A DNA stretch of 64,000 nucleotides from Psilocybe cubensis (lineage: Eukaryota), in contig CM039002.1 in the NCBI GenBank assembly GCA_017499595.2, positions 3,286,001 through 3,350,000 of the forward strand. Direction: 5' to 3'. Shown piece after piece: positions 5,749-51,581 of this stretch. Position numbers and translations under genes: made by a program. Below the pieces are notes generated by a model that was not told the DNA's origin, did not search any database, and was given only the letters and a program-made list of their open reading frames with translations. Every line of letters begins with the position of its first letter. Positions within the stretch are counted from its first letter, which is position 1.

Positions 5749-5835
5749 ATACCGCCCTTATATTTCAGCGATAAGGACAGCACCGAGCATCGCCCCCAAC
5801 CCAGTTCCGCAGCCTATTTCGACCTGGACGTGCCT

Positions 5836-6290
5836 GGCGCGCGCCACGCGTGTGCTGCGTATGCGTGCGCCACGCTTTTGAGGCGTATGCGTGCGCCACG
5901 CGTGTGCTGCGTATGCGCGCGCCACGCGTTTGATGCGCGCCACGCGTTTGATGCGTATGCGCGCGCCGCGCGTTTGATGCGCGCGCCACGCGTTTGATGC
6001 GCGCGCCACGTGTTTGATGCGCGCGCCACGTGTTTGATGCGCGCACCACGCGTTTGATGCGCGCGCCACGCGTGTGATGCGTATTGCGCGCGCCACGCGT
6101 GTGATGCGTATTGCGCGCGCCACGCGTGTGATGCGTATGCGCGCGCCACGCGTGTGATGCGTATGCGCGCGCCATGCGTGTGTTGCGTATGCGCGCGCCA
6201 CGCGTGTGTTGCGTATGCGCGCGCCACGCGTGTGTTGCGTATGCGCGCGCCACGCGTGTGTTGCGTATGCGCGCGCCACGCGTGTGTGTG
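5836..6290. repeat. CpG-rich, largely alternating purine-pyrimidine minisatellite (18-25 bp units built on GCGCGCCACGCGT)
   Basis: About 20 variants of GCGCGCGCCACGCGTGTGTTGCGTAT / GCGCGCGCCACGCGTTTGAT. Confidence 0.92.
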
Positions 6291-6426
6291 TTCGTCCAGA
6301 TACAAAGAGGCGTCGATACGGGGAGGGAGGGGTATACATGGATGTGTTTTGAAAAATAAAACTTGATTTCATTGTACACGCGTCACGGTAAACTCAGAGT
6401 GCCTGTCGAACGGGCCCTTTATTCCA

Positions 6427-7972: not shown

Positions 7973-9931
7973 GGCAATTGCTAGAAGCTCTTGAAGTCGT
8001 TATACGGTCTCAAACAAGCAAGCCTCATTTGGTATCAACTCCTTTGCAAAACCCTTGAAGCCCTTGGTTTCCTTCGCTCAGAACAAGATCACGCTGTCTT
8101 CTTCTTCAATCGCATCTGGAACGGAAAGTGAGTTCACTGCCTTCTCGCAATGCACGTCGATGATGGTCTGGGTGCCTCCAACTGCGGCGAATTCCTCAGT
8201 CATCTCAAGATCGAGATAGGGAAAGCTTTTGGCATCAAGGACCTCGGCCCTGTCAGATGTTTTCTCGGTGTCTACTTTGAACACAATCGCGCTACATGCG
8301 AATTGTGGTTGCACCAAGAATCTTTCATAGAATCCCTCCTTACTGAATTCGATCTTACCAACTGTAATCCCGTGAAAACTCCACTCGATCGAGATAATCC
8401 TTTAGGTTCTGGGGACGAATCGTCAACACTAGACAACATTCCCGACCTCAAACGAACATACCAACACCTCATCGGCTCCCTACTGTTTCTTCAGATGAAC
8501 ACCCGACCCGATATTGCGTATGCTGTACAACTCCTATCCCAACACTGCTCCAATCCTTCATCTCATCACTTTAATGCTGCAAAACGCGTCCTACGCTACC
8601 TGAAAGGGACAAAATCCTTTCGACTCCATTACGATGGAAAGAATTGCAACATCCCTTTAACGGGCCTCTCTGATGCTGACTGGGCAGGTGAGAAACACGA
8701 CCGTGCTTCAATCTCCGGGTTCGTGTGGTCGATGGCAGGTGGCCCCATCTCCTGGTCCTCCAAGAAACAAACTTGCATCGCCTTGTCCTCCACCGAAGCC
8801 GAATATGTTGCGCTCACTCGCTCCGTACAAGAGCAAGGGGGTGCCGGGGTTCAAAAAAAAAACACGACCTCATATTTTTTATTTCGAGGTAATTTGGGCA
8901 ACCTACCTACCTCGTGACCATTACATAACGATCAAAATCGCCTAAAATGGGAATTGCCAAGGGCCAAGACATTGAAAAGTTGGGGTTCTGGGGTTACAGA
9001 GGGAGGCAGCTGGCTCGGAACATTGTCGGTTGTTGTAGTCTCGCAAAGTGGAGTGTATTTGGGTAGGATTACTGGAAGAGTTGTTGTAGTAGGTACACGG
9101 ACTAATGCTAGTCCTCGTTTCATAAAAAAACCTTTGAGTGACAAGTCCTTCAACTTGGGCTTTGTGGATAGCTTTGCTGCTGCGGCTTTACATTTGGCTG
9201 TTCCTCGATGGCGTAGATTTAGGTTCTTTGACCCTCCGGGACCACACTTAATAGCCTTTTGGCAGTCAGGGCAGATTGCGTACCCATCCGCCAGATTGAG
9301 CAGTCGTCCAGACGGTAAATCAATGATCTTAGTAAATCAATGATCTCAGTCAAAATCAGGTCAAATATCTGTGTTGCTTGAAGCCCGGCCACCTATCATG
9401 AAGATTTTAACCTGAATTTCAACGAGATTGGTATTGTGTTTGTTTAAAAAACATAATTTGTCTATGAAATACAGTCCAAAATGCTCTAAACTTGATCACA
9501 GACAACTTTGGACCGTGAAATTCCTCAGAAATTAGACAAAAAAAATATGGTACAATTTTTTTTTTTTCGGGGCTGATCGGCCAACCTACCTACCTAGGTG
9601 GTGTCCAAATTTTGAACACCGGCACCCCCTTGTACAAGAGGGCATCTGGCTTCAACAAGCCTTTAAACAAATATTCATTCCATGTCCTTCACCACTCGTC
9701 CTCTCAACCGACAACAACAGTGCAAAATCACTCGCCGAAAATGACTCCAATCACGGAAAAGCCAAACACATTGACATCCGTTATCATTTCATTCGCTCCC
9801 ACGTAGAATCAAACTCTTTTTCCATTTTACATATTCCTGGTATTCTTAACACCGCTGATATTTTCACCAAGCCCCTTGCCCAAGTTGTCTTTCAAGGACA
9901 CGTCGAACGACTCGGGCTCGCAGCTCGCTGA
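7973..9931 (+). pseudogene. pol: Copia pol fragment, disrupted
   Basis: In-frame stops TAG 7982 and TGA 8129, and interruption by a TIR element. Confidence 0.88.
8834..9632. mobile_element. Non-autonomous TIR DNA transposon (799 bp, 8-bp TSD; hAT-like)
   Basis: TIR CAAGGGGGTGCCGG(G/T)GTTCAAAA at both ends. TSD TACAAGAG at 8826-8833 and 9633-9640. Internal minus-strand remnant with a CPDC..C..H..C zinc-finger-like motif. Confidence 0.93.
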
Positions 9932-9938
9932 GGGGGGC

Positions 9939-10119
9939 TGTTGGAGTTCATCTCGTCTCTTCACTCTGCGTCACATGTCATGTTCCTCTTTCACACGTCA
10001 ACCCCTGTTTATCCTTATTTACTTTCTCGCCAGTGTAGAACTTAGCGTTTCCTCGTTCTCACATACCTCAGTTGTTCTTCCATCAAGACACTGAGATACA
10101 TCATCTATAGACTCCAACA
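9939..10119 (+). repeat. Copia 3' LTR (181 bp)
   Basis: Begins TGTTGGAGT, ends ACTCCAACA, and immediately follows the PPT. Confidence 0.88.
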
Positions 10120-10483
10120 GTCCCGGCACAAAAGGGGAAGAAAGCAAAACCCATGGTGGTTTCAAAGGCGCTGACCACTCGGTGAGAAATATATATCTTC
10201 TTACGTATAACTTATATTGATTTGTTTGCATTTTTGTTTGCATTTAGAAATCTTTTCGCACTCAATTACCAGAAGACGCACCCTAATATCACTGCTGCAG
10301 AGTTTAAGAAGGTTTATGAGAATCTCGACAGGGATATTATCAAGGTACATTTATTCCTTTGTTTGTCTGCACTAGAAACGGCGGCAACGCTAACCACACT
10401 TCTATTAGAAATATGAGATTCTTAGTAAGGAAAGAAAAGCAGCATCAAAGGCGCCAGCAGCTATTACAACAAGTGCTGCGTAA
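10120..10483 (+). pseudogene. 3' exons of an HMG-box-like protein gene cut off by the copia insertion
   Basis: Spliced reading ...KALTTR|NLFALNYQKTHPNITAAEFKKVYENLDRDIIK|KYEILSKERK resembles an HMG-box helix pattern. Confidence 0.55.
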
Positions 10484-10490
10484 GTGGCTC

Positions 10491-13400
10491 TTACCATTCA
10501 TGTGTATCTATATCAGTTGAACTTATTATTCTGCCGTTTTTGATAGTGATTAACTTAGTGATTATGGCAATATGGACAATACAAGAGGGATGTTCATGGC
10601 ATATCAGCACAGATGTGCTCGGAGAAACAACAGACATATGCAGAAAAAAATCTGCAGGTGAGAAATTTTCTGTCCACCTACTCAATTGCGTTGAGGAATC
10701 CGCACAGGCATCACAGTCAATGAGAGTGATTACGGGTAACTTGAGCATCTTTGGGACCGAGGAACGAGGAAGCTGGTCGATACTGCGACATATAACCTTG
10801 TTCAATTCTCCGCTGCAGACGCCCTGAAGCTGGACAAAAAGCAAACTGGTGTCGGTACAGCAAGGGGCACCACCAATGTTGTTATGTTTGGCTTCTGCGT
10901 CGTAGGCTAGAATCATACGGGCATAGCGGCAAAGTATCATTTCATGGAACTTTTCTGTCGCCATGATATTTTGTGCATCCTTGTTTTTGTCCGTCTCAAT
11001 CATGTAGTGGATGGACTTCGTGCGATGACATAGCCACTCTAGAATAGCCAAGGCTTCGCCACGGGCAAAGATGCACGCCTTGCGCTCTTCGTCGCTCAGG
11101 CTGTTGGTATCCCACCGCATCCATGCGTCTAACTGTGCCAAAGTCTTGGTGGAGAACATCTGATCGGGATTTCGATAGGTCTCGTAGTCGAGCGCATTTG
11201 CCAAGATCATGTACACGCACAGAGCTATCAAGCTCGAGTATCCGGACTGCGTACTGTAGAATGGGACATGGTACATTTCATAAAAATCTGAGAGAAAATA
11301 GAAGAAAAGAATCAGATATCTTGTAGGAAACGGTAAAAAACCTCATACCTTCTGGGTCGCTGTCACCTTCAACCAAAACCTTGTAGAACCAATGTATGGT
11401 TTGCTGCAGGAAAAATCGGGACGTTGAATGATTTGTATTCGTTGCCCTGTATCCAGCGGTAAAACAGTGAATGATTCCTGTCAGGGTTTCTTCAAAGGAA
11501 GTGGAGGAGTAAAAATGTCCGCCACGGCAAACCACTGAGGAGATAGAATACGCCATATGTAGAGTATTCGGTCTCATGAAGCTGTTTTTCAAAGTAGCGT
11601 CAATATAATCAAATGGGTAGGACATTCAAAAATCACATACAGTTCTGACTGGTTATCGAGAACAATCGCCTCGTAAATCCAGTCTTGGTGGTGCGTTTCC
11701 CCGTAATCCAGCTTGTCTCCCAGAAATACACGGCGGTCAGAAGAAAGGTCAACATCCAACCGTCTGGGATACATGATAATCCACAGCTTTAGTCCATGAA
11801 GAGGTTGGATGAAGGAACAGAAACCATTGGCATCGATATGGATATCTGAAAATGCCCCCTCTGTAGCTACGAGTCCCCACGACATATCACCAAATGGGAC
11901 GGGGGTACTATACTTCCAGCTACCAGATGTAGCCCGAAGAGCAGCCGCCTCAGTACTCAAGTCAAAAGAGTGAGCGCCTGCATGAGGTAAAGGGATGTCG
12001 AGGGCATTGAGGATCTTTCCTCTTTTGCCTTTCATCCTTGCTGCTTCCATGACCTGAGAGAGGGACCCACGCTTAATCCTCTCGATGGAGTTAGACGACA
12101 TGGTCGACATATCTGTTACGGCCATTAGCATGAGACGCAGAAAGAAAAATCAAAACATCGAAGAGGAAACACACCTTGGATTGACCTGGTGCTCGTCATA
12201 TCACCCATATGGCGACGTACCTGGCTGTAGAACTCGTCGGAGCAAGTTGAAATAGACTCCTCTTGAGAAGGAGACATAAGGACGACGTTCCTTTCAGAGA
12301 AAGACTCCATCAGATACATGGATTTCGTGGTGCTGCGGTCGAATACCGCAAAACATGATTCTTCGGGACGTGCTATGTGCAATGGAACTCCATCGACGTA
12401 GTCACTCTCGACCAATTCCAGAACCCTTTCAACACGATCCACGTCGGCTTGACTCTTGTTTGGAGAATAAATAAATGACGAAAAAATCAATATCGAGAAT
12501 GACTTACATGGGCAACAACGCAGAAACTTTTAAGTTGGCCACGACCGTTGTAGATGGACCAAACTTTGGTGCCATACACCTTCTCCGGAGTGCTGACGAC
12601 ATCAAGGGTGGTGTTGCTGTCGTACAGATCGACATCAATACACAGGTCGTCGTCCAAATCAAATGTGTCGGTAGCCTGCGTCGGCTTGCGTTTGGGAGGC
12701 CGCTTGGAAAGGCCCTGCCGGCCCTTCCCTTTCCCTTTCTGAGAGGAGTCAGCCGTGGTGTTTTTGCTCCTGTTTATCTGGGAAACAGGAGGAATCCTCA
12801 AAATAAGAGGAGCAGGAGGTGCGTTCTCCCCCTCCTTTTCGCCTTGGCTGTCTTCCAATGTATTCCTCTCCATGTCTGAGGAATCATTGTTTTGCTCTGG
12901 GCCTACCCCCTCTCCATCGACCGACATTCTGTCCTCCTGGACTGGTGGAACATCCCCTTGCCCCTGCTTCTCGGTCTCATTGTCCGACGAACTGTCGTCT
13001 GGCCTTTCCTCCTCACCATCTTCTGACATTCGGTTCTCCTCGTCGGGTCGTTCTCCGTCTTGCCCCTGCTTTTCGCCCTCGTGAACTTCCGACATACGAT
13101 TTGCCTCGTCAGAAGACCCTTCAGCTCCTTGTCCAGCCCCGCCGTCTCCCAAATTTTCTGGACCATTGGTATGTGGACCATCCTCCATTTGATGGTCGAC
13201 ATCAGCTTGCTCCGGATCGACGTTCATCTCACAATCCCCTGCAGTTGAGGGCCCAGTATTCTCAGTCTGAAGTAGACCAGATCCAATATCATCACTCCGC
13301 GGCAAACCAGGTTGCTTGTCCGTGGGCACATCCTTGCCAGCCACCGAAGATGTGTCTTCCGGAGGCTGTATATCTGAGGTAGGGACCGTATTGTCCCCGT

Positions 13401-15110
13401 TCTCCTGTTGACCCATGCTGACATCCTTGCCAGCCACTGAAGACGTGTCTTCCGGAGGCTGTATATTTGAGGTAGGGACCGTATTGTCCCCGTTCTCCCG
13501 TTGACCCATGCTGACCATTTCCGTCGTGTCCACTTCGTGATCATCGTCACCCTCCGCGTCTGCGTCGGACCCTTCACAGGTGGTTTTTTCACCATGATGG
13601 GAAACGGTCTGAAGTTGAGCTGTTTTAAACGGATTTAAATCATGTAATTGACGCAGACTTTGCTTATAACTTACCGTGTGGTTCAGTGCTGTGCCTTGCT
13701 AGGTTAGAATTTGCTGTAACCTCGGCGCTGCTCGTTGACGCTGGCCAATTATTAGTTTAAATTGTTATTTTGTTACAGTACGTAGAACACACATATGAAA
13801 AAGTGAAACGCGGGATCTTGTGCAATTACCCGCTCGCATTCCATCCAGCAGTCTGAGATAACAAGTTTATATAAGGCTGACTGGATGTCGCAATTTTGCG
13901 CTGCAATGATTTTCCAAATTTCCATCTCCACTTCACGCAGAACACGGGGGCGACAATTACCGAGCGCTTTTGAGGCCTAAAGGAGTGCGTTAATCCAAGT
14001 TAAACTGGGAGGATGTGGATACACCTACTTTAAGCAGCTGCTCCCGGTCACATTTCTTAGAATACCAAGATTTATTCACAAAAAGAAGGATGGGGGATAT
14101 GAAAAGGGCGACATGCAGAGGAATTTTTAAATGAGATGGCGTGACCTCTGAGAGGAACAACGCAGCATCAGGATGGCCGCTTGCACTAGGGTATGTTGAG
14201 CAGATTGTATCAATGAATAGAGGAAAGAAAACTTACTAGAGATTTGCAAGAGTAGCCGTGTCCGTTGGAATGTCTGGTAGAATGTGTTCATTGTCCTTCA
14301 TACCGCGCATTCCTGACAAGATTTGGTAGTGTAGCGAGGCGCAGTACACATTCCCGATTATTTTCCCCACAACACCCTTGAAGTGGTTACGCGCCAGACA
14401 GAGTAATAGCGTTGATTCCGAGGGCCCGCCCTGGGTGAAAGCGGATGACGGCGTGTCACTGATAGAAGGGGTGTTGATGTTTCTGTGCGACTTAGAGTCG
14501 GCTCTGAGGATGCGCTTCCTGGCAGAGCAGAGCATTGCCGGCCAGTCCTTCAAGTCATCTACAAGCTACAATAATTGTTTGAAAATTAAGAATTAACATT
14601 GAGTGACTTCATGATCGCATACCTTGAACCGTGAAAATATTTCCTTAGTTCCTGTGCTGGCCTGTATTTCATTCAGGGGCACGGTCACCGGCAACGATGG
14701 TCCAAAGGCTGCTGGCCACAACGCTACGAGATCGAGTAGACGGTATGCTGCAAATAAGCTACCCGCCTGCTCCCATGTAGCCGAGGTTACGCAGGGTGTC
14801 TCTACGATGTTGTTCTGAAGGGCAGCCAAGCTTTGCCTATACTTGATGGCCGCTCGCATGCTCGATGATGAAACATCGTAATTCAAAAAGGTGAAGTCCT
14901 CATATCGTCGGAGGAAATCCACCATCCTCTACAGAAACTTGATATTAGTACCATAAATGGCAATCCAATTAAGACCTACGCGGAGTGGGTGCGACTCTGG
15001 CAACATGTTTTCCAGAGTCTGACGAACGACCTGCGTTTCGAAGAGAAACACCAGAATTTCTTCAGCTTGGAGTCGGGCAACGGGGGAAATCTTCTGGGCT
15101 TGCACTACAA
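10491..15110 (-). CDS. JmjC-like Fe(II)/2-oxoglutarate dioxygenase domain protein, multi-exon, with long acidic low-complexity region (start approximate)
   Basis: SWGLVATEGAFSDIHIDANGFCSFIQPLHGLKLWII (H-x-D at 11840-11832, K of GxKxW), then EAIVLDNQSEL|FMRPNTLHMAYSISSVVCRGGHFY (distal His). Upstream exons are linked by GT-AG introns. Confidence 0.75.
13331..13514 (-). repeat. 90-bp coding tandem duplication in the JmjC-like gene
   Basis: VSMGQ(R/Q)ENGDNTVPTS(N/D)IQPPEDTSSVAGKD occurs twice. Confidence 0.85.
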
Positions 15111-15295
15111 AACTTCAACGTCTCACCCTGCATTCTATTTCTTTGGGTACTTACTTTTTTTTGTGTGTTTTTTTCTGGTGTCTCAAATTTTCAACTAGAT
15201 GAATTTTAACTGAACGAAAACTATTATAGAGTGTCTAGAGTATTGTCTATGTCTATTTTATTAGAATGTATGTTAAATCTATGGGGAGGGGTACT

Positions 15296-15541
15296 ACGCT
15301 ATGACGAACGGAAAGAAAAACAATCAAGTTGGAAACACGCTATTTCCGGAGCGATTCTTTAGGGTAGGTTTCCCGTCCTGAAGTCACGAGTTGGTTAAAA
15401 AAACGCCCGTGATGCGGCTGATGTAAGGGGGCGTTTTTTTAACCAACTCGTGACTTCAGGACGGGAAACCTACCCTAAAGAATCGCTCCGGAAATAGCGT
15501 GTTTCTCACCATATGTTTTCTCTTTCCGTTCATCATAGCGT
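15296..15541. repeat. Long palindrome between divergent genes
   Basis: Perfect 77-bp arms 15332-15408 and 15429-15505 around a 20-bp spacer. Imperfect outer arms extend to 15296 and 15541. Confidence 0.95.
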
Positions 15542-15746
15542 CTTATCATAGTAATAGGTTGTGTAGTATCTAAAAATAAATTATCACAAGTTAAGATGAT
15601 AAATTAAGTGAGATGAACATCGATTAACAGTCTTTAAGACCCACAATGTCTAGTTATAAACGCAGATGACTTGACAGCCTAGGCAACCGCACAGTGTGTA
15701 CTAATCCAACCCTCCATCTAATCACTAACTTCAGGGAAATTTAATT

Positions 15747-18005
15747 ATGATCTCAAAAAATCAGGACATTAATCCCTTCATAGACATTGAAGCAGCGGTT
15801 TCCGATGATGATGAAAGTTCGGAAGAGCTTGATTATGAAGGGGGCCAACTACGTATGTTCCAATAATTTACATATATTCTGCTCAATATGTACTGATGCT
15901 AATGGGTTCTGACATACAGTGAATGATAACGATGAATACTCTGAGGATGAGGAACGTGTTGCACACTCTCGGCTATATCATGCCATGCAAAATACAGATA
16001 ACGCTGATGAATGGAGCGATTTGTTGCCCATGCTTCTGCCTTCACGCATGAAAATTCGTCCTGACAATGATATAGAGCCATCTAGTTCACGAGAACTTAT
16101 ACAGAAATATGGCAATCCCCAACCAGGAGGACTTGGTGATAATAATTATATGCCTTCCGCGACTGATATCATGTATGAAATAGGTTGCAAGGTACGCAAA
16201 AATAATATAAGTCTTCAGTCAGCATTTATTGATCACCTTACGAGTGATAGGTTGGACGCGAAGAGGCCGTCGCTTTCAAAATTATGCAGATGTCAACGAA
16301 CCCTACATTTTCCATCATCCTTGCCCGGTCTGTCTTCGCTCAATCCTCAATTCCTGGGAGAATCTACGTCGAGGCGCCATCAATGCAACATGCGCATACG
16401 TTAGCCTGCCTCGTTAGAGAGCTTAATCCGACACATTTAGTTAGGCTATCCTCGGAGAGATGTATGGAGATCCTATCTCATCCCCCACCCTCACGCCCTG
16501 AAGACCAATCGTGGGTCAAGGTTGCTGGAAAGCGTAAGGCTTGGACGACCTACGCAAATGCTACCGGCCTTGTGTTCACATTCCAGGGTCGGAAAAGTGT
16601 TGTTCTTATCCCCAGACCTCCGGACAACATCAAGAAATCGCACCTCGACAGGATATTCCAGGATGGATTTATTATCACGGATTTCGACGCCATCGATCTC
16701 AAATATCTTTCCAATGTCCTCCCAACATCGTCCGAGTTGGAGCAATTTCGCGAGTGTCCATTTGTAACGACGGAGACCTTAGCGCAAGCCTCGAAAGCCA
16801 TCTCCATGACTCGACTGAAACGATATGATCGAGTCAAAATTATTGGTGGAGAATACTTAGGTCTTTTTGGAACGGTCAAGAGTGTTTCTGACGCTGAGGT
16901 GGAAGTGCACATCCCCTCCCAAGGTATAACACAAGCAGTTGCACTACACGATCTACGTGCAGCTTTCCAGATAGGCGATAGTATTGAAGTCGTTGAAGGG
17001 GATCACAAAGATCTCCATGGATGGGTGTCAGACTTTGATGGAAGATCTGTTTGTATTATCGCCCCAGAGCACGAACGCGAAGTAGGTGAACTGTCATTCT
17101 CTTTGTCTTAGTAGTGTTCAACACATTTTTCAGGTCATTGTGCCCATCCACACAGTCATATTCTACGTCCCCCCTGCTCATGCTACTCTTCGCCCGCGAA
17201 AGCGTCATTCGTCAAAGCTTGGAGAAAGAGACCACAACGACGTCTATATAGGTTTGAGTGTCATCGTTGTCGGGAATAATACATTCAAGGGGTACTATGG
17301 CATCGTTAAAAGCACTACCCCCGACGGCTTTGCAGACGTTGAGCTGGAAGCTCGTAACCAGAGGGTGGAACGTATTAAAATATCACATTTAATTATACAG
17401 TATGTGGTTTCACTTGATTCGTTGACTGTCAGGTGCTTACTGACATTGTTTCAAGCAACCGAGAACATATAAATTCCGCTCAAGACCCCGGGCCTTCTGG
17501 TGGAGCAACTCCAATGCCGTCCACAGTAGCAAGTTTTCTGTCTCCTGCATGGAATCCGTATTCAGCAATACCTGTACACTCGGCGGTGGAAATCGCAGAA
17601 CTACCCTCAACCGTCGCTCACTGGCTAGATACGAAATACGATAAGCTGAAAGGATTACGATTAAAAGTCTTAGACAAATCCAAGGGCGACCATCAAGTGG
17701 CGATGGAACTTCTCAGCCTTACCGACAATACTGCCCACCTAGCATTACTGGGACGTACACTGACATTACCGAAATCAGTGTTGTTTCCAATTCATCCTGT
17801 AAAAAAGGACGACTTCGTTACACCGCTTGAGGGCGATTCAATGGGGATTATATTCAGGATACGATCAATAGACAAGGATATTTGCGTTGTACATAAATAT
17901 CCCGTTACTCGTATGAAACGCGGTGATACATTCCCAACTTTTCCGACAACATCTTTGATTCAAATCTTCCCCCCGTCCCGTGGTGTCAAAGTTGTAAATA
18001 TGTAG
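15747..18005 (+). CDS. Divergent Spt5-like protein (acidic N-terminus, NGN domain, several KOW motifs), multi-exon
   Basis: NPFIDIEAAVSDDDE; YEIGCK|VGREEAVAFKIM...SVFAQSSIPGRIYVEA (NGN). KOW-like DRVKIIGGEYLGLFGTV, FQIGDSIEVVEGDHKDLHGWV and IGLSVIVVGNNTFKGYYGIVKS. Short CTR-like GGATPMP..SPAWNP. Confidence 0.82.
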
Positions 18006-18172
18006 GGTGCAGCATTACTTGTATCTCGAACACGGACTTGTAGACATATACGGGTTTTATGTCATTCTATTTAAGTATATTTCGGCAATCAACAGTGCTA
18101 ATGGTTCGTAATGTGTTGATTGTCTTGAACTTAAGCCACCACCACCACACCAAATTGTTGCCCATCTTTATC

Positions 18173-18527
18173 ATGAACCATTCCAATAGCAACAACGCTT
18201 CGCAACCTCAAAGTCGCCGCCTCCCTAGCATACCCGAAGAGGCAGAGTTCTTTGTTTTAGGTCTATTTTCATGTTTTAATCCACCTTCCTCTAGAATCAA
18301 GGCATAGAGGCCGTTAAAAAGGCTCTTGACCAATTTCAACTCACTGAACAGAGGTGTCTAGAAGTTCAGGCAGAGCTACGTTGTTATATGGACGACATTA
18401 TGCGAGCATATAAATCCAATGAAGATCTTCTGTTTGAAACCCAGCTCGAAATCGCCCGTCTACGGGTATCCCTCATTAGTCGGGGAATACCTATTCTAAT
18501 GCACCCTCAGGATAATCCGCGATCATG
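18173..18527 (+). CDS. Small coiled-coil hypothetical protein (2 exons, possible GC-AG intron)
   Basis: MNHSNSNN...PSIPEE joined to NQGIEAVKKALDQFQ...QLEIARLRVSLISRGIP*. Confidence 0.45.
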
Positions 18528-18799
18528 ATAGGTGCAGTCTTTTCCCCTCTGAGATGTAACTTTACTTAACTCTAAGTAGGACATGGAATCTGACTATAAT
18601 GTATATGTGATATATTGTAGTAGATAGGGGTACTGTTTCAGTACCTGTAATTTCTATATGGCACGATATATTTTTGACTGATGTCCGTCGCCTTAAATTT
18701 TGAAAAGAGGCTAATTTCGCATACCTCCGGATCGTAGCTTGACATAATTCACCACCCCTTGTCTCTATTTCTGCATTACAACCGTCAAACCAGCCCAAT

Positions 18800-21506
18800 A
18801 TGCCACCTAAAGGATCCAAAAAGAAAAAGGCAGTTGTCAATGCCACGGTTGAAGGTATCATCTATATATCCTCATTACATCCGCATACTTAATGTTTTAT
18901 CCATCTAGGACAAGAGGTTGAACAGGGTCCGAGCTCCGTGGCAGAAAACGAGCCACCTCAGGCTCCAGAAGCAGGTCTGTACTAGCATTTTCTTTGTTGA
19001 GATTCACTGAACTCCTTATTAAAAAGACCCCAATGGCCGTCCTATCCGAAGCACCCGTGGTCTTGGTGGAGTAAATGCTCGGCAGGAGAAAACATCTAAC
19101 ATCATTTTTATTGACTTTGAGAAGGCTGGGAAGAGGAAGTCAAGGGCCGCCAATGTGGATACTAGTGCCATGCCTGAAAATGAGATGGCGCCTCCCTTGA
19201 AGAAACCTTGCAATGGGGTGAGTCTACTGTTCTAATCTTAAATTTGCTATCTTCCAAGCACGTCTAGGTTACCGTTGTGTTGCATGTAGGTCCCCCTATT
19301 CAAATGCAACCAAGGCCAACGCCTTCAGTTGCTCCTTGGGATGTCCAACAAGTCCAACCAAGCCCACGACAATCTCAGGGTGCCCCCCCTCCTGTCCAGA
19401 TCCAACGTGCAGCTCAGAGAAATCAGGAGCACTCAGAGCTTGATCATGCTGTCCAAAGACCCACTGCCCCCATCCAGCGCCCCGCTGCTCCGGTACAACA
19501 GCCAGCACATCCTGTCCCGCGCCCCGTACAACATGCAGCACATCCTGTCCCGCGCCCTGTACAACACGCAGCAAATCCTGTTCAGCGTTACGCTGCCGCT
19601 GCGGCAGAGAATTCTGTCCAATACTACAATGCCCCCGTACAACAACCAGTGCATCCTGTAACACAACATGCCCCCGTACAACAGCCAGTGCATCCAGCAG
19701 CCTATAACGCCCACCAAGAGGCTAGCATCAGCCATCAAGACGAGGAGGAGCAACAAGATTACGAAGGCATAGAGCAGGAGGAAGATGAGGAGGAGGAAGA
19801 GGGGGATAGTGACGGTGAAAGGCAATCTGAGGAAGCATCAGGGGACAAATGCATGCAAGGAATTGATGAAGAGAATATTGGGGATGAAGAAGCTCTCCAA
19901 TATGTCGACGGTGAAGCCTGCTGCCCAGCGTTGGTTTAACTCCACCTTTATGTTGTGTTTGCTTACCACCTATGTTTGACAGTGGTTGATGAAGTTTCCG
20001 ATGATGAAGAGGAGAGGAGAGCAAGGGCATTGCTCCGCCAGCCTTCCCCCCATGTAATCATTTCTCTGCTGTATTTAATGTCTAGCTAATGTATTATTGA
20101 TATAGGTTGTGGAAGTAGAGGATGTTCTTCAAGAACACCGTCGTCGTAATCGGGCGAACAAGCCATCTCGCCCTGAGGCATTGCGCAAGGCGGCTGTTTC
20201 GCAAGGAGCCGTATCCCAAGGTTTGACAAGGGAGAACAACGAAGCATCTGACGATGATGAGGTGCTTGGTGAGGCACACATCGCTCATAAGAAGTCCAGT
20301 ACTTCTTCTGCTAGGGAAGTATCCAAGCATTCAGTTGCATCCTTTACTGGTTACTGGAAAGATGTGCTCAAAATTGCACGCAAACTGATGTGCCTGTATG
20401 TAGTAGAGGAGGTCCCCTTTCCCACTCGGGAAAATCACTTATTAGTCGCCGATGGATGTGTGAAGATGGCAGTAACCGTGTTTGAAAGAATGAACACGGA
20501 TAAAGTGTTGCCTGATAGTAAGTTCTGTCTTCTGTGATTTTAGTTAATTGGTTTACATAACTTTGCAGAGAAAAAAACGCTCCTAGACAGGAATACCGCC
20601 GTAACGGTATATTTTTAGCGTGTTCTTTTAAGGATATCGTACTAACGTGTCTGTTCTCATTAGGCATTTGTCTACGCGTCAACCTTCCGGGGAAGACTGA
20701 AGACGATGATCAGACCCCTGGTCAAAAATGCGTATGGCCTCGAAGTCCCGTCGGAGGTCATCGCCGCGAACCCCAATATGTTTGAAAATCAGATGGGGGA
20801 GATCGAATACATCAAGGACAGGGTAGCATATTGGCTACTCAATGGTAAATACCACCGGGGTGTTGCCAAAACCCGAGTGAGTTCGCCGTCCATTTTACCT
20901 GGCTTACCACTCATTGATTTGTTTCCAGTATCACAATGTCCCATTTGGACATCCTTTTGTGAAGAAGATCTGTCTGGACTTCTTCTACCATCCTACAAAA
21001 GGGGTTGCAGTCCCCATCAAAGGTCTGGAGACAAAGACGGATTTCTTCAAGACATCGCTTCCCCACAAAGCATTTGCGCTTGTGGCCAGTTGTGTAGTTC
21101 TGATTTCTCTCCTGCTATTGGCACTGCCTTGCTAACAAGCATTTTGCTGTAGATCCACAACTGTCTTGAGGAGTGGAGGGATGGGATTGACCCTGCAAGA
21201 GGTGGTCCGTGTTCGGGTATTGAATTTAAGGGAGAGGAGTACTCCCTGAGGTATGATGCCTGCATGTTGGTTGCAGCAGAGGCAGAGAAGGATACCTTGA
21301 ACCAAGGTCCTCGCTTGGCTCGCTTATGTAGGGAAGTGGCTGAGGAAGGATGGTGTGTATCTTTTTTTATTCATTTCTTTCTTTGCATCATTTAGATCTC
21401 CATAATCAGTGCTATTATGAGGCCTACGAAGAACCCCCCCAACCCTTATAGGATGACTCTCCATTCTATCCCACAGGAGGAACTAGATTACGGTCCAGAA
21501 GGGTAG
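18800..21506 (+). CDS. DUF6532-like domain protein with Pro/Gln- and Glu-rich N-terminus, multi-exon
   Basis: MPPKGSKKKK start. C-terminal VEEVPFP...STFRGRLK..IRPLVKNAYGL...PFGHPFVKKI...LPHKAFALVASC|IHNCLEEWRDG...EFKGEEYSLRY pattern. Confidence 0.7.
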
Positions 21507-21774
21507 TTGGGTGAATGAGCGGGGCAGCTGCCGGGTGTGGATTAGAAGATACCATATTTAGATCGTCACATATTAATAGTTATGCATCTACTAATAGAAA
21601 CATGTTTGGTCCGATCCAAACATAGATTATCTATTTTTAAAATTGCCCATTTTAGTCAAAAATGGTTCGGTTTTCAGTGTGATATTGGCACTTGCAGGAA
21701 TAGCCACACAACACTATACAAATGAAAGTGGATACTATATATGCCTTTGTACCTATTTGCAGTGTGTTATGATG

Positions 21775-21866
21775 TGCTACAAATCTGTGGTAGCATGCTA
21801 CAAATCTGTGGTAGCATGCTACAAATCTGTGGTAGCATGCTACAAATCTGTGGTAGTATGCTACAA
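21775..21866. repeat. 21-bp tandem repeat of self-complementary units (x4)
   Basis: TGCTAC-AAATCTGTG-GTAGCA repeated; scattered (G/CA)CTAC motifs continue to ~22120. Confidence 0.9.
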
Positions 21867-22121
21867 TTTGTATGTCAGTTGTATACAGAGGGGTATGGAC
21901 CATGGTAAGCATGCTACACGCCGCTACACAGCACTCGCGTTACAATACAGATCACTACAGAGTACCATGTCACGTTGGTACCAAGCTACAGGTACATCAG
22001 TGTGTGTTACCCAAATGGGACCGTTACTATGGGCACTACAGAATTATGTATCACTACGGATCATTACCTACTTGGCCCCGGTATTGCTGATGTACAAGTT
22101 CCGGTTGATCAAGCACACAGG

Positions 22122-23083
22122 GTAAGTTTTTTTTTTCGTTTCAACTAGTCCCCAGTCTCGAATACGCCTTCGATCTTACAGCGAATCTACTCCGATTGTC
22201 GATGCGAGTAACCATGTCATTGGGGTAATTGCAAACCACCCTAACGACCCCTACTGGCAAGATCTTCAGCGCCAGGCCTCTGCTGCCATTGAGGCTCGAC
22301 GCGATCGGTGTTGCATCCCAATCGAGGACGAAACTCATCGTCAAGGAGCCTTCATTTCTCTCAATTGTGGCGTATCACACGGAGGTGGTCGAAAAATGCC
22401 GGGCAACGTTAAGAATTCCAAGCCAAACGCCGAAGTCCTGGCCGAGTTAAACGCAATGGAACCGTTCCAGAGATTCTCCAGTTTCGCATCATGTAAGTTT
22501 CTCCTCATTTTGGACAACTGCGCGCACTGAAAACGTATTGGCAGCTGTCATGTATACGTGGGCAAACCAGCTCTATCAGTACTATGCCACAACGCTTTCA
22601 AAACTACATTCCAAACACCCCAAGCTCCGTCGCATCTTCCCTGACAGCATCTTTAGTGCTGTGTCGTATAATTTTGGCCCATGGACAACCTGCTTCCAGC
22701 ACAAGGATTTCGCAAACCTTGCGTTTGGCTGGTGCGCCGTAACCGCCCTGGGAGACTTCGACTACACAGCAGGAGGCCATTTGATATTATGGGAGCTTAA
22801 GATTGTCATCGAGTTCCCACCTGGGTGCACCATTTTATTCCCCTCAGCCCTGATTACACATTCCAACGTGCCCATCAAGGAAACAGAACGTCGCTATTCA
22901 TTTGCGCAGTACACAGCGGGCGGAATCTTTCGATGGGTAGAGAATAACTTCATGACGCGTGAGCGTTATTTGGCGAAGCTGACTTGAGAGCAACATGCGC
23001 AAGACGAGGAAGCTAACGCAACACGATGGAAGTTGGGATTGTCTCTGTTATCTACGTCAAATAATGCCAAAACCACTGCATAG
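22122..23083 (+). pseudogene. TET/JBP-family dioxygenase lacking its 5' exon(s), with a premature TGA near the C-terminus
   Basis: STPIVDA..VIGVIANHP..HRQGAF..LNCGVSHGGG; TCFQHKDFANLAFGWCAVTALGDFD..GGHLILWELK..IEFPPG.TIL.PSALITHSN..ERRYSFAQYTAGGIFRWV (HxD...H...R). TGA at 22985-22987 is followed by an in-frame RWKLGLSLLS tail. Confidence 0.88.
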
Positions 23084-23680
23084 TTACATTCATTAGATAC
23101 TTCCTGATATAGCAGATGTGAATCAAATCAGTCCAAGATAAAAATTAAAGGAATGAGATGAGAATTGCTGGAGTAGTGTAAAAGCAGGCTAACGTATGGT
23201 GATCTCGGGTGATGTTTATGGTGATCTCGGTTTGATGGTTTTTGCCTCGTATAATGCTTAATTGTGACTCTAACGCTATGAATACAGTGTCTAAAGACAG
23301 AGAATCTTTGGGAGAATTGATTTGTCAAAAAATTAGAGCATTAGTGTAGTTACAAAAATGGTGATATTTCGAACACTGCACACAATCCACGTATGTACGT
23401 ACGTCCTCATAATGCACTTTGGATACACCAAAAAATTTTTTTTTTCAGAAACGTCTTCAAACGTATTTTAGATTATTTATGGTATTTTTCAATTCTCTGA
23501 AAGCCGCACGCAATGTTGTGCAAAAGAATTTTCTTTGTGTGAACTACACTTGACCTGCCTCGGTTCATACCTTTTTAGGTAAGTATTTGTTCTAGCCTTG
23601 CCGTTCAAGCCTTGCCTGACTTCAAAACATTGTGATCGCCTCTTTATCAAACACCGTTATACTCTGCCCTACGTGTATTA

Positions 23681-24256
23681 ATGGCACGCCAACGCGCTTC
23701 AAAAGCAATCAAAACTGTAAACCGTGAGATGTATCTCAGACGGAGACATGCTTACTATGAGGCGTACGTAGGTCTCTGTCAACGCAATCAACCTACGCAA
23801 ACTTAACTACACGCAAACTTAACTTTCTTAGCAACTGCAAACGCGAGCAACGGAAATCGCAAGAGCGTTATCAACGGTACGTCCAACGTGCGCATACTAT
23901 GTTACAACCTAACCTCATTCATGACCATCAGTCGCAAGAGTCTGCCTGACAACGAGCTTGCTTTGAGCAGACAGAAGCATCGTGAGGCCCAGGCTAGATA
24001 TCGTGAACGAAACCGTTTCACGTTGAAGGTTAAGGCCAAAATTTACTACAGGTATGTTTTATTTTATTGTCAAAGTCATTAGTATACAAACTATCTACGT
24101 AGGAAAAAACAAAACCCTCCAAACGAAGAAGAGGAGGACCCGGATGAGGAGGAAGAATGGATACGCCTGAGCGCGCTGGCTCATGGCATTACTGAGGAGG
24201 AATGGATCAGTTTGCATGGACGCAACTCTTACCGAGGTGGTTCGCCTGTTCACTGA
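23681..24256 (+). CDS. Small basic helical protein (Arg-rich, bZIP-basic-like) with acidic tail, 4 exons
   Basis: MARQRASK...; KHREAQARYRERNRFTLKVKAK; GT-AG introns link the exons. Confidence 0.55.
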
Positions 24257-24454
24257 TTTGGTTCAGTAAAATTTCATTTTACATTTTTATCAATATCTGA
24301 ATGTTTTTCACGTGCATTGAGCAACAATCACACCCCAAAGAGCCAGCCAATCTCATATGAAATTGAAATAAAAAAAGCTTAGTAAAGTACCAGTGTAAAC
24401 TAAGTTGTGAGATACGTCCCCTACAGCATACCCTTTGCAAAATACACCTTTGCC

Positions 24455-26150
24455 TTACATCATATCTTCATCGTCATCGTCCTGGGGCATTTCTGGTGTT
24501 TCTTCAGAGCCAGGAGGAGCAGAAGTACCTGAGTCGGCTGATGCCATGAGAGAAGATAAGGACGGGTGGGAAGCTCCATGATTGAAGAAATCCGCATCAC
24601 ATGTGAATAACACAGATTGTTCAAGGGTCTGAGAGTTACCGATAGTCGCAGAGTCCTGAGAAGATCCAACCAATGATTGACGCTGACGTCGTGCTGCTGC
24701 AGCTGCAGACAAAATCCGTTGCTGGTGTTGAGTGAGACGCTGAGAATCTGCATCCTGAGAGGCTGAGGACAGGTCATTCCATGACGCAGAGCTACCTTCC
24801 CCCTGACGTGATACCAAGGGTAGGTTGGGCCAAGGAGGAGAGTCAGGGTTACCTCTCCACCGGGTACGATTGTTTGCCGAGTTTGTAGAAGCCCGCGAAG
24901 ACCTGGAACCCGTGGCAGAGCTGGAACCTGCAGCTGATTCAGAGTTTCCAGTAATGGTGGCAGGGGGCAAATCAGAATAAGAGGGTGGGGGGGCGCTAGA
25001 TGGGGAGTTGCGGTCAGGAGACGCTCGTGAATGCCATATGTAGTTCTCAGGATCCTGTGGGTCGCAATACCAATTGCTGCCGTTCATTTTGATTAGCTTC
25101 TCCTTTGGAACTCGAAATCCGGTAGACGAAGCAGGCCGCTTGTTTTTTCCCTTGGAGTTTGAAGTCTGCGATACAGAAGCAGGAGCTTTGCCCTTGGACT
25201 TCGAAGGCGCGGTAGACACAGATGATGTCTTGGAGTTGGACAGTGGGGTAGAAGACGACAGCGACGGCACATTATCTGCAAGTCGGGCCAGACGAACAGC
25301 ACGGCGGGTCAGAGCATCGCCCATGCCAACAGGAATTGGGTTGAACTCACTCCCATATCGGGCATTAGGATCTTCAGGCGCCCGTACGGGTGCAATAGCT
25401 GGTGCGGCGGTTCGACGTACAGCCGTGGGATCACGAGACGTTGATAGTGCTTGGCGCGCAGTAATAGGAGGTGGCGGCACTGGGACAGACACATGTGCAG
25501 GAGGAGGTGGAGCTGGGGACGAGCCAGAGGAAAGACCGGTCGACGTGGATGGCGAAGGGGGAACGATGTATACATCCCCTGCAAGGTATCTCTCCGTGTA
25601 ATAGGCAACGGCTTCACTCCACGAAAAAAATTGGCGGATAGCGTATCCGGGAACATGAAGCAAGAGATTCATATCTATTTGACTAGAAGATCACATCAGT
25701 AGGTTATTTTTTTTTATAAAATTCAACAGCTGCTTACTCTGCACGGTCAAACAGCCCAACAATGTATCCGATAGTCACCACCAGAATTGTGATCGCTGGT
25801 TGAAGCAGCTCCGATGGACGTGGGGCGCGAGACGAAGAGAAATTGACACCAAAAAACGGCAACGCACCGGCGTTGCTGTTATCACGAGGGACCGAAACCA
25901 GGGAGGAAGCCGCGCGGGCAGAAGGAGGCGCAGGCTGTGCCGGTGGTGCTGCAGCTGCACTGGGGGCCGTTGCAGAGGGGTGTATTGCAGACTGTGTGGT
26001 CGGAGTGGGGGCCGACGACGAAGATGGCGTTGCAGAGGGGTGCGCCGCAGATTGTGTAGTTGGAGTAGAGGCCGACAATGAAGAGGGCGTAGCAGCAGCG
26101 GCTGACGCGTTGGGCGGGTCTGAGGTAGGAGGAGGGGAGTCTGACGACAT
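24455..26150 (-). CDS. Low-complexity protein with an RNase H1 N-terminal (hybrid-binding / Cauli_VI)-like domain, 2 exons
   Basis: ILVVTIGYIVGLFD...LLHVPGYAIRQFFSWSEAVAYY resembles the YxVxxG..GxF..W..V.G.....F.S..EA pattern. Ser/Pro/Ala-rich flanks. Confidence 0.55.
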
Positions 26151-31600: not shown

Positions 31601-32228
31601 TGAAGTGAGTTATGGTTGTGTGTGTGCGAAGCTTGCAGACTCCGTCTGCAATGTCCAAGGTTGTAGATAATGTCTGAATGGTGTAGCAAGATGCAAGTTG
31701 GAGTTTTAATTGAGAGAAAATCGAAACAGATCGATCCTTGCCGAGTGCGATTCACTCCGAGACAAGGTGGACGAAATGTGAGGGAAAAAAAAAAATAGCT
31801 CTGTATTCCACTAAAGTCTCGTCTCCCACTACCTAAGTTAATATATAGTAATTTGTTATCTTCGCCAAGCTGTTACTGCTGCGTGCTGAGCCAGACACCA
31901 CCTCCTCCGTGACACTCGTTTCCCTGTTCGTTGCGCCTGTGGGCGCTTTGACAGGGGCTCATCAATGCTTGGCGGTCGTGGTTATTTCCTTATTCGACCC
32001 CCCTTGGCGAGTGTGGCGCACGCACTCGTATGCTGTAGTTTGAAAAGACTTATCTTGCATTTTGTCCCTTATCTTCCCCTGTGTGTGATAAGGTCATCGG
32101 TGCAGCGCTCCTGTATCACGTCGGAAGTCGCATCCGTCGGCACAGCTATGGGCTTTTGCTCTGTCTCGTGACGCCAGGCTTTTGCTATCGCGCGCGCTTT
32201 TGATCGCAGACGGTAGTGGGTTCCCACA
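31601..32228 (-). repeat. Gypsy 3' LTR
   Basis: Matches 38759-39386; I found one mismatch (31945 G vs 39103 A). PPT GGGGAGG on the minus strand at 32229-32235. Confidence 0.97.
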
Positions 32229-32271
32229 CCTCCCCGGTACTATAAATGTTGACCTCTGTGTCAACCTGGAA

Positions 32272-32944
32272 ATGCCCATCCAAACACTCAATTCGGACTT
32301 CAGCACCACTTTCATCATGCTTAGAGTTTTCACCGAAAACAGTATCCACCGAATCAACCTCTTTGCTACCGAACACTGGCACCGAGACACGAGCTTTACG
32401 GTTGCCGCCGGCATGCGCGTCATTACGGAGGGCAGCCATGGACCGCGAGGCGACTTCTTTAATTTTATCCACTTTCTTGATGCCGTGGTAAGCCTAACCA
32501 TTCTGCAAATGTTTCCACGTATATTAACCTATGGTGTGACAGCGCGGCATGGCGAGCAGCCGCCACGCGATGCGGGAGCTTGACTTGATAGTCAGTGTCT
32601 TTGACCGTGACCTCGTCACGTTCCAGAGTGCATTGGAACGAGGATCTGCGGACCGTGTTCCCCAGTGTGCTCAACGCGATGCCATTGCAGCAGTCTACAC
32701 CATTATGAACGGGGAGCAACGCGAGCGGTTTGATATAACCTCGTGGTATATTGAGCAGATCGAGAAGGCTATTTATGGGGAGGACGATTCCATTTACGTT
32801 TCCTCTGACAGTGGAACCGATGACATGCCACTTTTGGAAGGCGAGAACGAGGCCAGGGATGAAGGCGAGCCGGAACAGGATGTCACAGAGGTGATTCCAG
32901 ACAGTGGTTTGCAGTGGGGCATTAGGAGCGGGCGCCGGGTGTAA
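32272..32944 (+). CDS. Antisense spliced ORF (205 aa) inside the gypsy element
   Basis: TATAAAT at 32241. Exon 32272-32487, intron 32488-32542 (GTAAGC...TTAAC...ACAG), exon 32543-32944 in frame. Confidence 0.65.
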
Positions 32945-33073
32945 TAAATAGTTATTTGTTGCTTGTTTTTTGTTTATTTGACAGTTTTTTAATCGGTCGA
33001 TTCTAAGTGACAGTCCTTGAGAGAAAAGAAATTTTTATAGATTAGTAGGGTTGGCTGCAAGGTTGGGACGGTG

Positions 33074-36000: not shown

Positions 36001-36440
36001 AATACTCGTCACTAAACTTTCCTTTCTCGGATTCATCCCATGCGAACGCGGTTTCGTGTAACAGTATTATGTGGTGCACCAATTTCTCTTCCTCTGGCCA
36101 GAGGAATCCGTCTGGGTTAACTTTCATGGCTTCTTTTCTTTGTAGTGTGTATCGTTGTCCTGGTGTAAATTCGGGCGGTCTGGTCGGAAGAGCAGGCAGA
36201 TCTGCAAGCGGGTCTGACGGAATGCGTCGTACGATGCGAAACTTTTCGGGTAGCGTTGTTGCGACGGGTTTAATTCGATTGGCGACTTTTTTATATGCGA
36301 GCGATGCGTTTTGATTTCGGTTATCAGACGTGTAATAGCGAGAAAAGGAATTGGATTGAGAAATAGAAACATTTGACGTATTTATGATGTGAAGACTCTG
36401 GTCTCCTCGATTTATATTCGATTCATCGACCCCTAAAAAT
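33074..36440 (-). CDS. pol: Gypsy pol (RT, RNase H, integrase), probably reached by -1 frameshift
   Basis: LRIVHDLQPLN, FDLFVGFDQ, PMGYTNS, PFVDDIP; LAVDSS, ELYGL; HHCC finger (AHDDLGH...CHEC); integrase core DTML/TDNA/VERRH. The frame is open upstream of Met 36127 to the slippery site. Confidence 0.93.
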
Positions 36441-38499: not shown

Positions 38500-38739
38500 C
38501 TTGGTTGCAATTCCCCAATTTACTGGAACAAATGTGGGTCGGGTCGGGGACGACTGTGCAGAGGCGTTCGATGAATCCGATGACGAATCGGTTTCAGATA
38601 AAGGCTGGCGGTAGTGAAAATAATGGGGAAAATATGTAGGTGTTGGACGCGTTTCCGTGGCGTCTTGGGTGTTCTCGAGTCCCTCCTTGTTTGGGGCACT
38701 CGAGAATCAAGGATAGGGTGGTTTACAACCTTTAGAACC

Positions 38740-38757
38740 CCTCGCGGTGGGCTCCAG
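38740..38757 (-). promoter_or_regulatory. Primer binding site of the gypsy element
   Basis: TGGAGCCCACCGCGAG begins 2 nt after the 5' LTR and is complementary to a CCA-ended tRNA. The tRNA identity was not determined. Confidence 0.75.
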
Positions 38758-38758
38758 T

Positions 38759-39386
38759 TGAAGTGAGTTATGGTTGTGTGTGTGCGAAGCTTGCAGACTC
38801 CGTCTGCAATGTCCAAGGTTGTAGATAATGTCTGAATGGTGTAGCAAGATGCAAGTTGGAGTTTTAATTGAGAGAAAATCGAAACAGATCGATCCTTGCC
38901 GAGTGCGATTCACTCCGAGACAAGGTGGACGAAATGTGAGGGAAAAAAAAAAATAGCTCTGTATTCCACTAAAGTCTCGTCTCCCACTACCTAAGTTAAT
39001 ATATAGTAATTTGTTATCTTCGCCAAGCTGTTACTGCTGCGTGCTGAGCCAGACACCACCTCCTCCGTGACACTCGTTTCCCTGTTCGTTGCGCCTGTGG
39101 GCACTTTGACAGGGGCTCATCAATGCTTGGCGGTCGTGGTTATTTCCTTATTCGACCCCCCTTGGCGAGTGTGGCGCACGCACTCGTATGCTGTAGTTTG
39201 AAAAGACTTATCTTGCATTTTGTCCCTTATCTTCCCCTGTGTGTGATAAGGTCATCGGTGCAGCGCTCCTGTATCACGTCGGAAGTCGCATCCGTCGGCA
39301 CAGCTATGGGCTTTTGCTCTGTCTCGTGACGCCAGGCTTTTGCTATCGCGCGCGCTTTTGATCGCAGACGGTAGTGGGTTCCCACA
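38759..39386 (-). repeat. Gypsy 5' LTR
   Basis: Direct repeat of 31601-32228. Confidence 0.97.
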
Positions 39387-51300: not shown

Positions 51301-51581
51301 TCCAGATTGTCCCAAATGCAGTCTCTACATCCTCTGTATATTCAAATCATGCTTCAGCTTCAGACAGTATGGGCGAGTCTAGCATGCAGGGTTTTGGAGA
51401 TGATATGGAAGTAGAAGAGTCAGCTGAGGAGGCGGACAACAGTGAAGAAGTGGAAGAAACCTTACCTTGTGCCACAGAAAGGGATGTGGACCTTGACATG
51501 GATCTTGAGGAAATAGAGGAGGAGTACAATGTTATTGAGGATTCAGAGGATTCAGAATTGGAGGGGGAAGGGGACAGGTAG
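48379..51581 (+). pseudogene. DUF6589-domain protein (possibly an Academ-like DDE transposase) with a premature stop
   Basis: YDNVN, NGTCAT, IDESTITGN, GGDQLSLARLR, PGLFHAK, IKSGDSGR, FRGSGRTKYAHEML, MDLVQEHLN. In-frame TAG at 50039-50041. Start uncertain. Confidence 0.75.

Follow-up and report, generated by a model that had tools for sequence, protein, structure and literature searches.

We analysed a 64,000-nucleotide (nt) stretch of the Psilocybe cubensis genome (contig CM039002.1, positions 3,286,001 to 3,350,000; hereafter the window) and identified a divergent gene pair in a transposon island. A JmjC-like dioxygenase gene on the minus strand (10491-15114) and an Spt5-like gene on the plus strand (15646/15747-18005) are separated by a palindrome. 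Our preferred, though tentative, reading is that the two are accessory or passenger genes of transposons that aid transcription despite heterochromatin. An initial annotation, made from the sequence alone, had described a head-to-head layout around a centred palindrome in a spacer of ~600 base pairs (bp), and the coordinates bear this out, with a spacer of 520-625 bp. The genes of the window have short GT-AG introns, and named proteins of Psilocybe cubensis match them at 98-100% identity; for the pair itself, the closest proteins are from this species and are 98-99% identical.

The minus-strand gene had been called JmjC-like, and this identity is upheld by profile, fold and catalytic residues, not by Pfam. 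A HMMER scan with exon 11643-12113 matched 454 cluster representatives at E ≤ 1e-3, 60 of them at ≤ 1e-10 and 3 at ≤ 1e-30. The profile of 28 long relatives matched ceKDM7A (E 5.4e-5), KDM2A (E 0.017) and PHF8 (E 0.14). When this profile is aligned to ceKDM7A, the H-x-D motif, the lysine and the second histidine are in register, and the lysine of GLKLW, which we take to be the 2-oxoglutarate ligand, stands opposite the lysine of GEKIF. A search of PDB sequences with a single JmjC exon returned nothing relevant, merely a chance match to a ribosomal protein.

Because the core of the window gene is split by an intron, the fold was examined on a P. cubensis paralog, P0156, whose AlphaFold model has a predicted local distance difference test score (pLDDT) of ~85-93 over residues 512-1090. 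Foldseek gave 341 matches to this model at E ≤ 0.001. Among the matches listed, chains of KDM7A, PHF8, PHF2 and KDM2A lead through rank 30; the best have E values from 7.7e-11 to ~1e-8 and template modelling (TM) scores, normalised to the target, of up to 0.69. Lower matches include JMJD6, KDM4/5/6 and TYW5. The P0156 model shows a double-stranded beta-helix fold of the JmjC type, and the JmjC domain is of the KDM2/KDM7/PHF8 type, with a helical region after it.

The catalytic positions are largely conserved. Among the 44 relatives having both core exons, the first histidine is present in 41/44, the aspartate in 39/44, the lysine in 40/44 and the second histidine in 41/44. The window copy keeps all four residues (the H-I-D pair, the GLKLW lysine and the second histidine). 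Given that the Fe(II) triad and the 2-oxoglutarate lysine are kept, we predict that the JmjC-like protein has oxygenase activity, most likely as a lysine demethylase.

A scripted model of the JmjC-like gene gave a single GT-AG splice path of 1302 codons (10491-15114) with 10 introns and no internal stop, in which the first methionine is codon 37. In the reference annotation the gene is JR316_0004108 (P0151), which encodes 833 amino acids (aa) and starts at 13518. The 1373-aa paralog P0002 aligns to the window in two blocks, 15123-13797 and 12639-10683. Because this alignment runs from 15123 to 10683 and the splice path is open over 15114-10491, the locus is one gene, longer than in the reference annotation. 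The last exon of the reference gene, which the window lacks, ends in a basic SKRRRL tail that resembles a nuclear-localisation signal by eye.

The N-terminal exons (13797-15114) are predicted to encode a helical domain of ~330 aa and are 50% identical to P0002 over residues 28-329 and 62% identical over residues 326-388. The introns within 15114-13977 measure 51, 117, 51 and 52 nt. When modelled alone from 25 alignment rows, the N-terminal domain of the paralog is almost wholly helical (pLDDT 81.9, predicted TM score 0.85), and it found no fold match, the best E values being 0.88 in PDB and 0.28 in BFVD. A dsRBD-like or Dicer-like domain had been hinted at by atlas scores of 0.79-0.85; this candidate was rejected because the confident model is all-helical and without a match in PDB or BFVD. 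Our guess is that the domain serves targeting.

The remaining exons follow on the same strand. An acidic low-complexity linker exon (12508-13608) carries a basic KGKGKGR...KRPPKRKP patch and is predicted to be disordered, with a pLDDT of ~30 in the corresponding part of the paralog model. This linker also contains an in-frame 93-nt tandem duplication (13328-13513, 96% identical). The exon upstream of the JmjC core (12175-12454), whose splice sites were found again by script, is 97.8% identical to P0151 residues 338-430. The first core exon (11641-12112), placed by profile and relative alignments, contains H-I-D within SDIHIDANG and the GLKLW lysine. The second (11349-11581) contains the second histidine within MRPNTLHMAY as well as GGHFY, and its segment comes directly after that of the preceding exon in 44 relatives. 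In the C-terminal helical exon (10683-11287) the frame continues to a stop at 10491-10493.

The minus-strand gene is predicted to encode a protein of ~1270-1300 aa belonging to a multicopy family found across the Agaricales. A lookup of 20 representatives by name returned nine genera of this order: Psilocybe, Agrocybe, Coprinopsis, Galerina, Pholiota, Pluteus, Panaeolus, Ephemerocybe and Infundibulicybe. Among the best 150 of the 454 relatives, 113 fall below 300 aa and are probably exon-sized calls, and 23 reach at least 800 aa. The family has five tagged loci in P. cubensis. P0002 and P0153 are 99.8% identical and lie on contigs of 2.56 and 4.33 Mb, and P0014 and P0155 are 98.6% identical and five locus tags apart. 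In a Coprinopsis species, four members of at least 90% identity are found on four scaffolds, and Agrocybe chaxingu has five members on contigs of 2.8-10.9 kb. CC1G_11256 of Coprinopsis cinerea also belongs to the family.

P0002 and P0153 are both intact 1373-aa copies despite having lost the first histidine, the aspartate, the lysine and the strand with the second histidine. Since intact copies persist without these residues, part of the JmjC family may have a role other than catalysis.

The plus-strand gene (15646-18005) is Spt5-like, as the initial annotation had it: NGN and KOW domains scored above their Pfam cut-offs, and Spt5 chains were recovered from PDB. For NGN (PF03439; cut-off 22.4 bits), the window exon scored 24.4 bits and the spliced reference protein P0161 scored 31.5 bits. 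KOW reached 29.0 bits (cut-off 22.3), KOW2_Spt5 47.5 bits (28.9) and KOW5_SPT5 29.3 and 28.6 bits on two exons (27). In the PDB sequence search, 14 of the 16 matches were Spt5 chains, the best at E 2.4e-10 over the KOW1-KOW2 region. The acidic N-terminus was matched weakly (18.7 bits, cut-off 24.2). No C-terminal repeat region was detected, and the last exon (181 aa) has no Pfam family.

Our model of the Spt5-like gene starts from an in-frame alternative ATG at 15747 and comprises five exons (15747-15852, 15920-16191, 16251-17081, 17134-17399 and 17456-18005) separated by 4 canonical introns of 52-67 nt; it encodes 674 aa without an internal stop. Among the reference models, P0161 and P0285 split the gene and P0286 skips exon 17134-17399, which we retained because it contains a KOW match above the cut-off. 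At this length, and with the C-terminal repeat region undetected, the protein is, as judged from its sequence, a truncated Spt5 paralog distinct from the canonical factor. A TGA at 15667-15669, upstream of our start, removes a KRRR-containing N-terminus that resembles a nuclear-localisation signal by eye.

The cluster of Spt5-like proteins at 90% identity consists of JR316_0004106 and 0004105 on a 4.19-Mb contig and P0286 (603 aa) on a 3.62-Mb contig. P0286 is named 'Transcription elongation factor SPT5' and is 98.9% identical to window exon 16251-17081. The reference holds two Spt5-like copies, ~98-99% identical, on different contigs, at JR316_0004105/6 and at the KAH9480968 locus. The window copy matches neither: by reading, it agrees with P0286 at 4/5 diagnostic residues and with P0161 at 1/5, and it has private changes in addition. 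Among cluster representatives, a word-based search for longer Spt5-like relatives yielded 0/2017 candidates, and a 'near' search recovered the reference protein alone; neither search reached beyond this cluster.

Between the two genes lies a palindrome of 246 bp (15296-15541) with arms of 113 nt each (15296-15408 and 15429-15541) that are 92% complementary and enclose a 20-nt loop. Its inner stem of ~75 bp is perfect and its ends are sharp at 15296 and 15541. The predicted DNA fold has an energy of -125.5 kcal/mol compared with -29.8 for shuffled sequences (z = -28.4; 0/200 shuffles equal). The spacer measured from 15123 is 523 bp (to 15646) or 624 bp (to 15747), and the centre of the palindrome, at 15418, is within ~20 bp of its middle. 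No further copies were found in the window. A convincing target-site duplication is absent, with merely a 2-bp CT when read by eye, and Rfam gave zero matches in 9000-24500. The palindrome may be a regulatory element or a foldback insertion.

The reference annotation contains the same JmjC/Spt5-like adjacency (JR316_0004105 to 0004108). Compared with that locus, the window diverges by ~1-2% at the protein level and is short of one exon. The window locus may be a strain variant of this reference locus or a further copy, and the pair may thus be present at two loci.

The surroundings of the pair were scanned with Pfam using 38 of the 59 open reading frames (ORFs) of at least 150 aa in the window. 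Matches were obtained for 11/38, and 27/38 had none. The families found are Plavaka, RVT_2, gypsy integrase/RNase H, DUF4100, Tet_JBP, DUF6589, KDZ, CxC2 and DUF6532; the majority are transposon or retroelement families and the remainder are uncharacterised DUFs. No housekeeping domain was detected among these 38 ORFs, in agreement with the transposon-rich setting described initially. Near-identical copies at unlinked loci were found both for the Spt5-like gene (two contigs) and for the JmjC paralogs P0002/P0153. Because near-identical copies lie on different contigs and the surroundings are rich in transposons, both genes fit recently duplicated, repeat-associated DNA.

We propose that both genes may be accessory or passenger cargo of large DNA transposons, or what remains of such cargo. 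By analogy with fission-yeast Epe1, a JmjC protein that opposes heterochromatin, the JmjC protein would strip repressive methyl marks from lysines. The Spt5 paralog would serve elongation in a specialised way, as RfaH and other bacterial NusG paralogs do for operons gained by horizontal transfer. Together their products could help repeated or mobile DNA to be transcribed in heterochromatin. Transposon-encoded TET, SET and VANC proteins provide a precedent (PMC12730594). The weakest step in this proposal is that the JmjC-like and Spt5-like genes act as one co-regulated unit.

A number of observations weigh against this proposal. Pfam JmjC (PF02373) matched 0/5 scanned ORF pieces of the window, and among the 28 long relatives it gave 2 weak matches (21-21.9 bits, cut-off 24) and left 26 matchless. 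The paralog P0156, on which the fold was examined, is 36% identical to the window JmjC core exon and has H-x-A in place of H-x-D, and in P0002, the closest paralog, none of the four catalytic residues remains and the strand with the second histidine is gone. The window copies also differ at one end from their closest relatives. In the JmjC-like gene no start can be recognised before codon 37, and the conserved last exon of its family (44 aa in P0151) is absent. Counted from the reference-type ATG at 15646, codon 8 of the Spt5-like gene is TGA, where both reference proteins have arginine. A TET/JBP-type dioxygenase gene 4 kb downstream of the pair is without 139 N-terminal residues that its closest relative has.

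The distribution of copies and the search for element boundaries add to these points. In the reference annotation, the JmjC subtype of the window (the cluster at ≥ 90% identity) is confined to one locus on one contig. The second Spt5-like copy lies on a contig other than that of the JmjC subtype, and TET copies lie on three further contigs, so that the co-regulated unit proposed in the initial annotation is not supported. A locus-tag comparison limited to annotated copies placed the closest of 11 TET and 5 JmjC-family tags 61 tags apart. Element ends and target-site duplications were sought in the window; neither flanking inverted repeats of at least 30 nt nor duplications were found around the genes, and the pair could be assigned neither termini nor a transposase. 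Flank matches of 11-12 nt, including 10091-10102/23728-23739, were considered as termini and rejected as being at chance level. The description of the pair as transposon-borne is plausible in view of near-identical copies across contigs and the transposon-rich setting, but is not supported by termini, target-site duplications or a linked transposase.

Another possible, somewhat less probable, explanation is that the genes came together by chance among nested and fragmented repeats, that the palindrome is an unrelated insertion of foldback type or similar to a miniature inverted-repeat transposable element, and that neither regulation nor function is shared. The three gene families differ in their copy distribution in the reference annotation. 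The JmjC-like and TET copies are each short of one end, suggesting segment breakpoints at ~10683 and ~22093; the Spt5-like copy differs from both, having a point stop at codon 8. The sharp ends and the perfect ~75-bp inner stem of the palindrome are what a young insertion would show. Its position within ~20 bp of the middle of the spacer argues for the opposite, as does the annotation of the same pairing in the reference (JR316_0004105 to 0004108), from which the pair may exist at two loci.

We consider it unlikely that the window copies are decaying relics without present function. The absence of the last exon and of a recognisable start in the JmjC-like gene, the TGA in the reference-type first exon of the Spt5-like gene and the 5' truncation of the TET gene would all be consistent with decay. 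However, frames of 1302 and 674 codons remain open through 10 and 4 canonical introns, respectively (weak evidence of selection at a divergence of ~1-2%), all four JmjC catalytic residues are kept, and translation of the Spt5-like gene can begin at the in-frame ATG at 15747 in place of the lost one.

The genes might also be host genes, that is, lineage-specific expansions of chromatin factors for genome defence or development that silence or regulate repeats instead of rescuing them. The JmjC proteins would then tune heterochromatin, and the Spt5 paralog would assist transcription that is non-coding or linked to small RNAs, in the manner of plant SPT5L/KTF1 and ciliate Spt5m. Long, intact JmjC proteins (843-1707 aa) occur across nine Agaricales genera, and at least 800 aa are reached by 23 of the best 150 relatives. 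No transposase is fused to the 28 long relatives scanned, and the atlas lists many Basidiomycota clusters with KOW1_SPT5 and NGN (best score 0.94, 50-168 members), a lead that may include fragments of canonical Spt5. We regard this explanation as still more doubtful than decay, given the near-identical copies on separate contigs, the many members on short contigs typical of collapsed repeats and the lack of housekeeping domains among the ORFs scanned around the locus.

The preferred reading of the pair as transposon accessory or passenger genes can be taken further, to a version that we think improbable. The locus would then represent a mobile or repeat-borne kit for transcribing through heterochromatin, consisting of a KDM7-like demethylase with a private targeting domain, a private Spt5 paralog that loads onto RNA polymerase II at the element and TET dioxygenases nearby; the promoter palindrome could serve the divergent pair as a shared recruitment or regulatory site. 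The Spt5 paralog would be a eukaryotic counterpart of NusG paralogs of the RfaH type.

Among known proteins, the closest to the JmjC family are KDM2, KDM7, PHF8 and PHF2 (JHDM1-type), which it resembles in the best profile and fold matches, the H-x-D...H triad, the lysine and the helical region after the barrel. The window family differs from them in being only 13-15% identical and multicopy, in having an N-terminal helical domain and an acidic linker, and in having no PHD, CXXC, F-box or other reader domain (26/28 relatives are without a Pfam match). Epe1 and the window family are both JmjC proteins, likened here by description only, and the intact P0002 without catalytic residues may parallel the debated non-catalytic role of Epe1; Epe1 is a single-copy host gene, and the window family is multicopy. 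The Spt5-like protein shares with Spt5/NusG the NGN and KOW domains in Spt5 order and matches PDB Spt5 chains at 2.4e-10. Unlike Spt5, whose full-length PDB chains have ~900-1100 aa, the window paralog has 674 aa, no detected C-terminal repeats and at least two near-identical copies.

Downstream of the pair, the initial annotation had placed a coiled-coil gene and a DUF6532 gene. ORFs are present on the plus strand in both cases and fall outside the interval 10491-18005 given for the module. The first is a small two-exon ORF (18173-18528) with no Pfam family, whose helical or coiled-coil look was judged by eye. The second is a multi-exon, DUF6532-like gene (18800-21395) with a proline- and glutamine-rich acidic middle and a DUF6532-like C-terminal part. 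Its assignment falls just below the Pfam threshold: DUF6532 (PF20149) scored 23.2 bits (E 7.2e-5, cut-off 24), and a second exon scored 14.6 bits (E 0.031) against a separate part of the profile.

The TET/JBP-type gene follows at 22093-22987 on the plus strand and is 100% identical over 146 aa to P0162, with a weak match to Pfam Tet_JBP (E 0.012). Its cluster has four members on three contigs. A 21-bp tandem repeat with five units (21754-21879) is located between the DUF6532-like gene and 22093, where similarity to full-length TET starts; it may mark the junction of two repeated segments. Further downstream, at 23900-24050, a short ORF includes a stretch of basic residues that is bZIP-like by eye, REAQARYRERNR.

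The window contains further repeats. A gypsy-type long terminal repeat retrotransposon (31601-39058) has 300-nt direct repeats (31601-31900/38759-39058) that are 100% identical, together with long pol and gag-like ORFs, and looks like a very young insertion. A set of nested large inverted repeats (51776-53552) with arms of 176, 162, 80, 45 and 42 nt and 89-99% complementarity lies directly downstream of the DUF6589 gene (49508-51581); this second palindromic structure is larger than that at 15296-15541 and unrelated to it in sequence. A copia-type pol fragment (RVT_2, 8132-9931) is apparently split by an insert of ~800 bp bounded by 37-nt inverted repeats (8834-8870 / 9596-9632). At 909-1215 and 1064-2662, a motif with CCAGGCTCATTGC occurs eight times with ~39 bp spacing on the 5' side of a Plavaka-type transposase ORF. 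This 13-nt motif has 8 exact copies there, its sole other match is 1337-1349 with 2 mismatches, and no inverted counterpart was found elsewhere in the window. In addition, a GC-rich minisatellite with 20- and 26-bp units is present at 5811-6317.

Chromatin and DNA modifiers encoded by transposons have been described before. Kojima's 2025 survey describes TET/JBP genes in fungal transposons (KDZ, Plavaka and others), SET in Harbinger/MuDR of oomycetes and VANC in VANDAL of plants (PMC12730594). The corresponding counter-measures are DNA demethylation by fungal TET/JBP, histone methylation by oomycete SET and sequence-specific anti-silencing by plant VANC. The genes studied here resemble the TET/JBP cases of that text in that enzymes modifying chromatin or DNA sit in mobile, multicopy sequence within the same group of fungi, with TET, KDZ and Plavaka all present in the window; they differ in that the element ends and a linked transposase are undefined (PMC12730594). 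The terms Spt5, KOW, JmjC, Jumonji, NGN and DUF6532 have 0 occurrences in the survey's main text (PMC12730594). In another article, DUF6532 is reported with KDZ and Plavaka among the domains additionally encoded by two Ganoderma species (PMC8955403).

A full-text literature search, whose results were abstracts and listings, returned no description of JmjC or Spt5 paralogs in fungal transposons, in line with the initial suggestion that the pairing is uncharacterised. Within the literature searched, two elements are new even without a link to transposons, namely an Agaricales-wide multicopy JmjC family with a helical N-terminal domain that has no match in PDB or BFVD, and a duplicated Spt5 paralog. 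If the preferred reading is true, a repeat-borne histone demethylase and an elongation-factor paralog would extend the transposon arms race to histone marks and RNA polymerase II.

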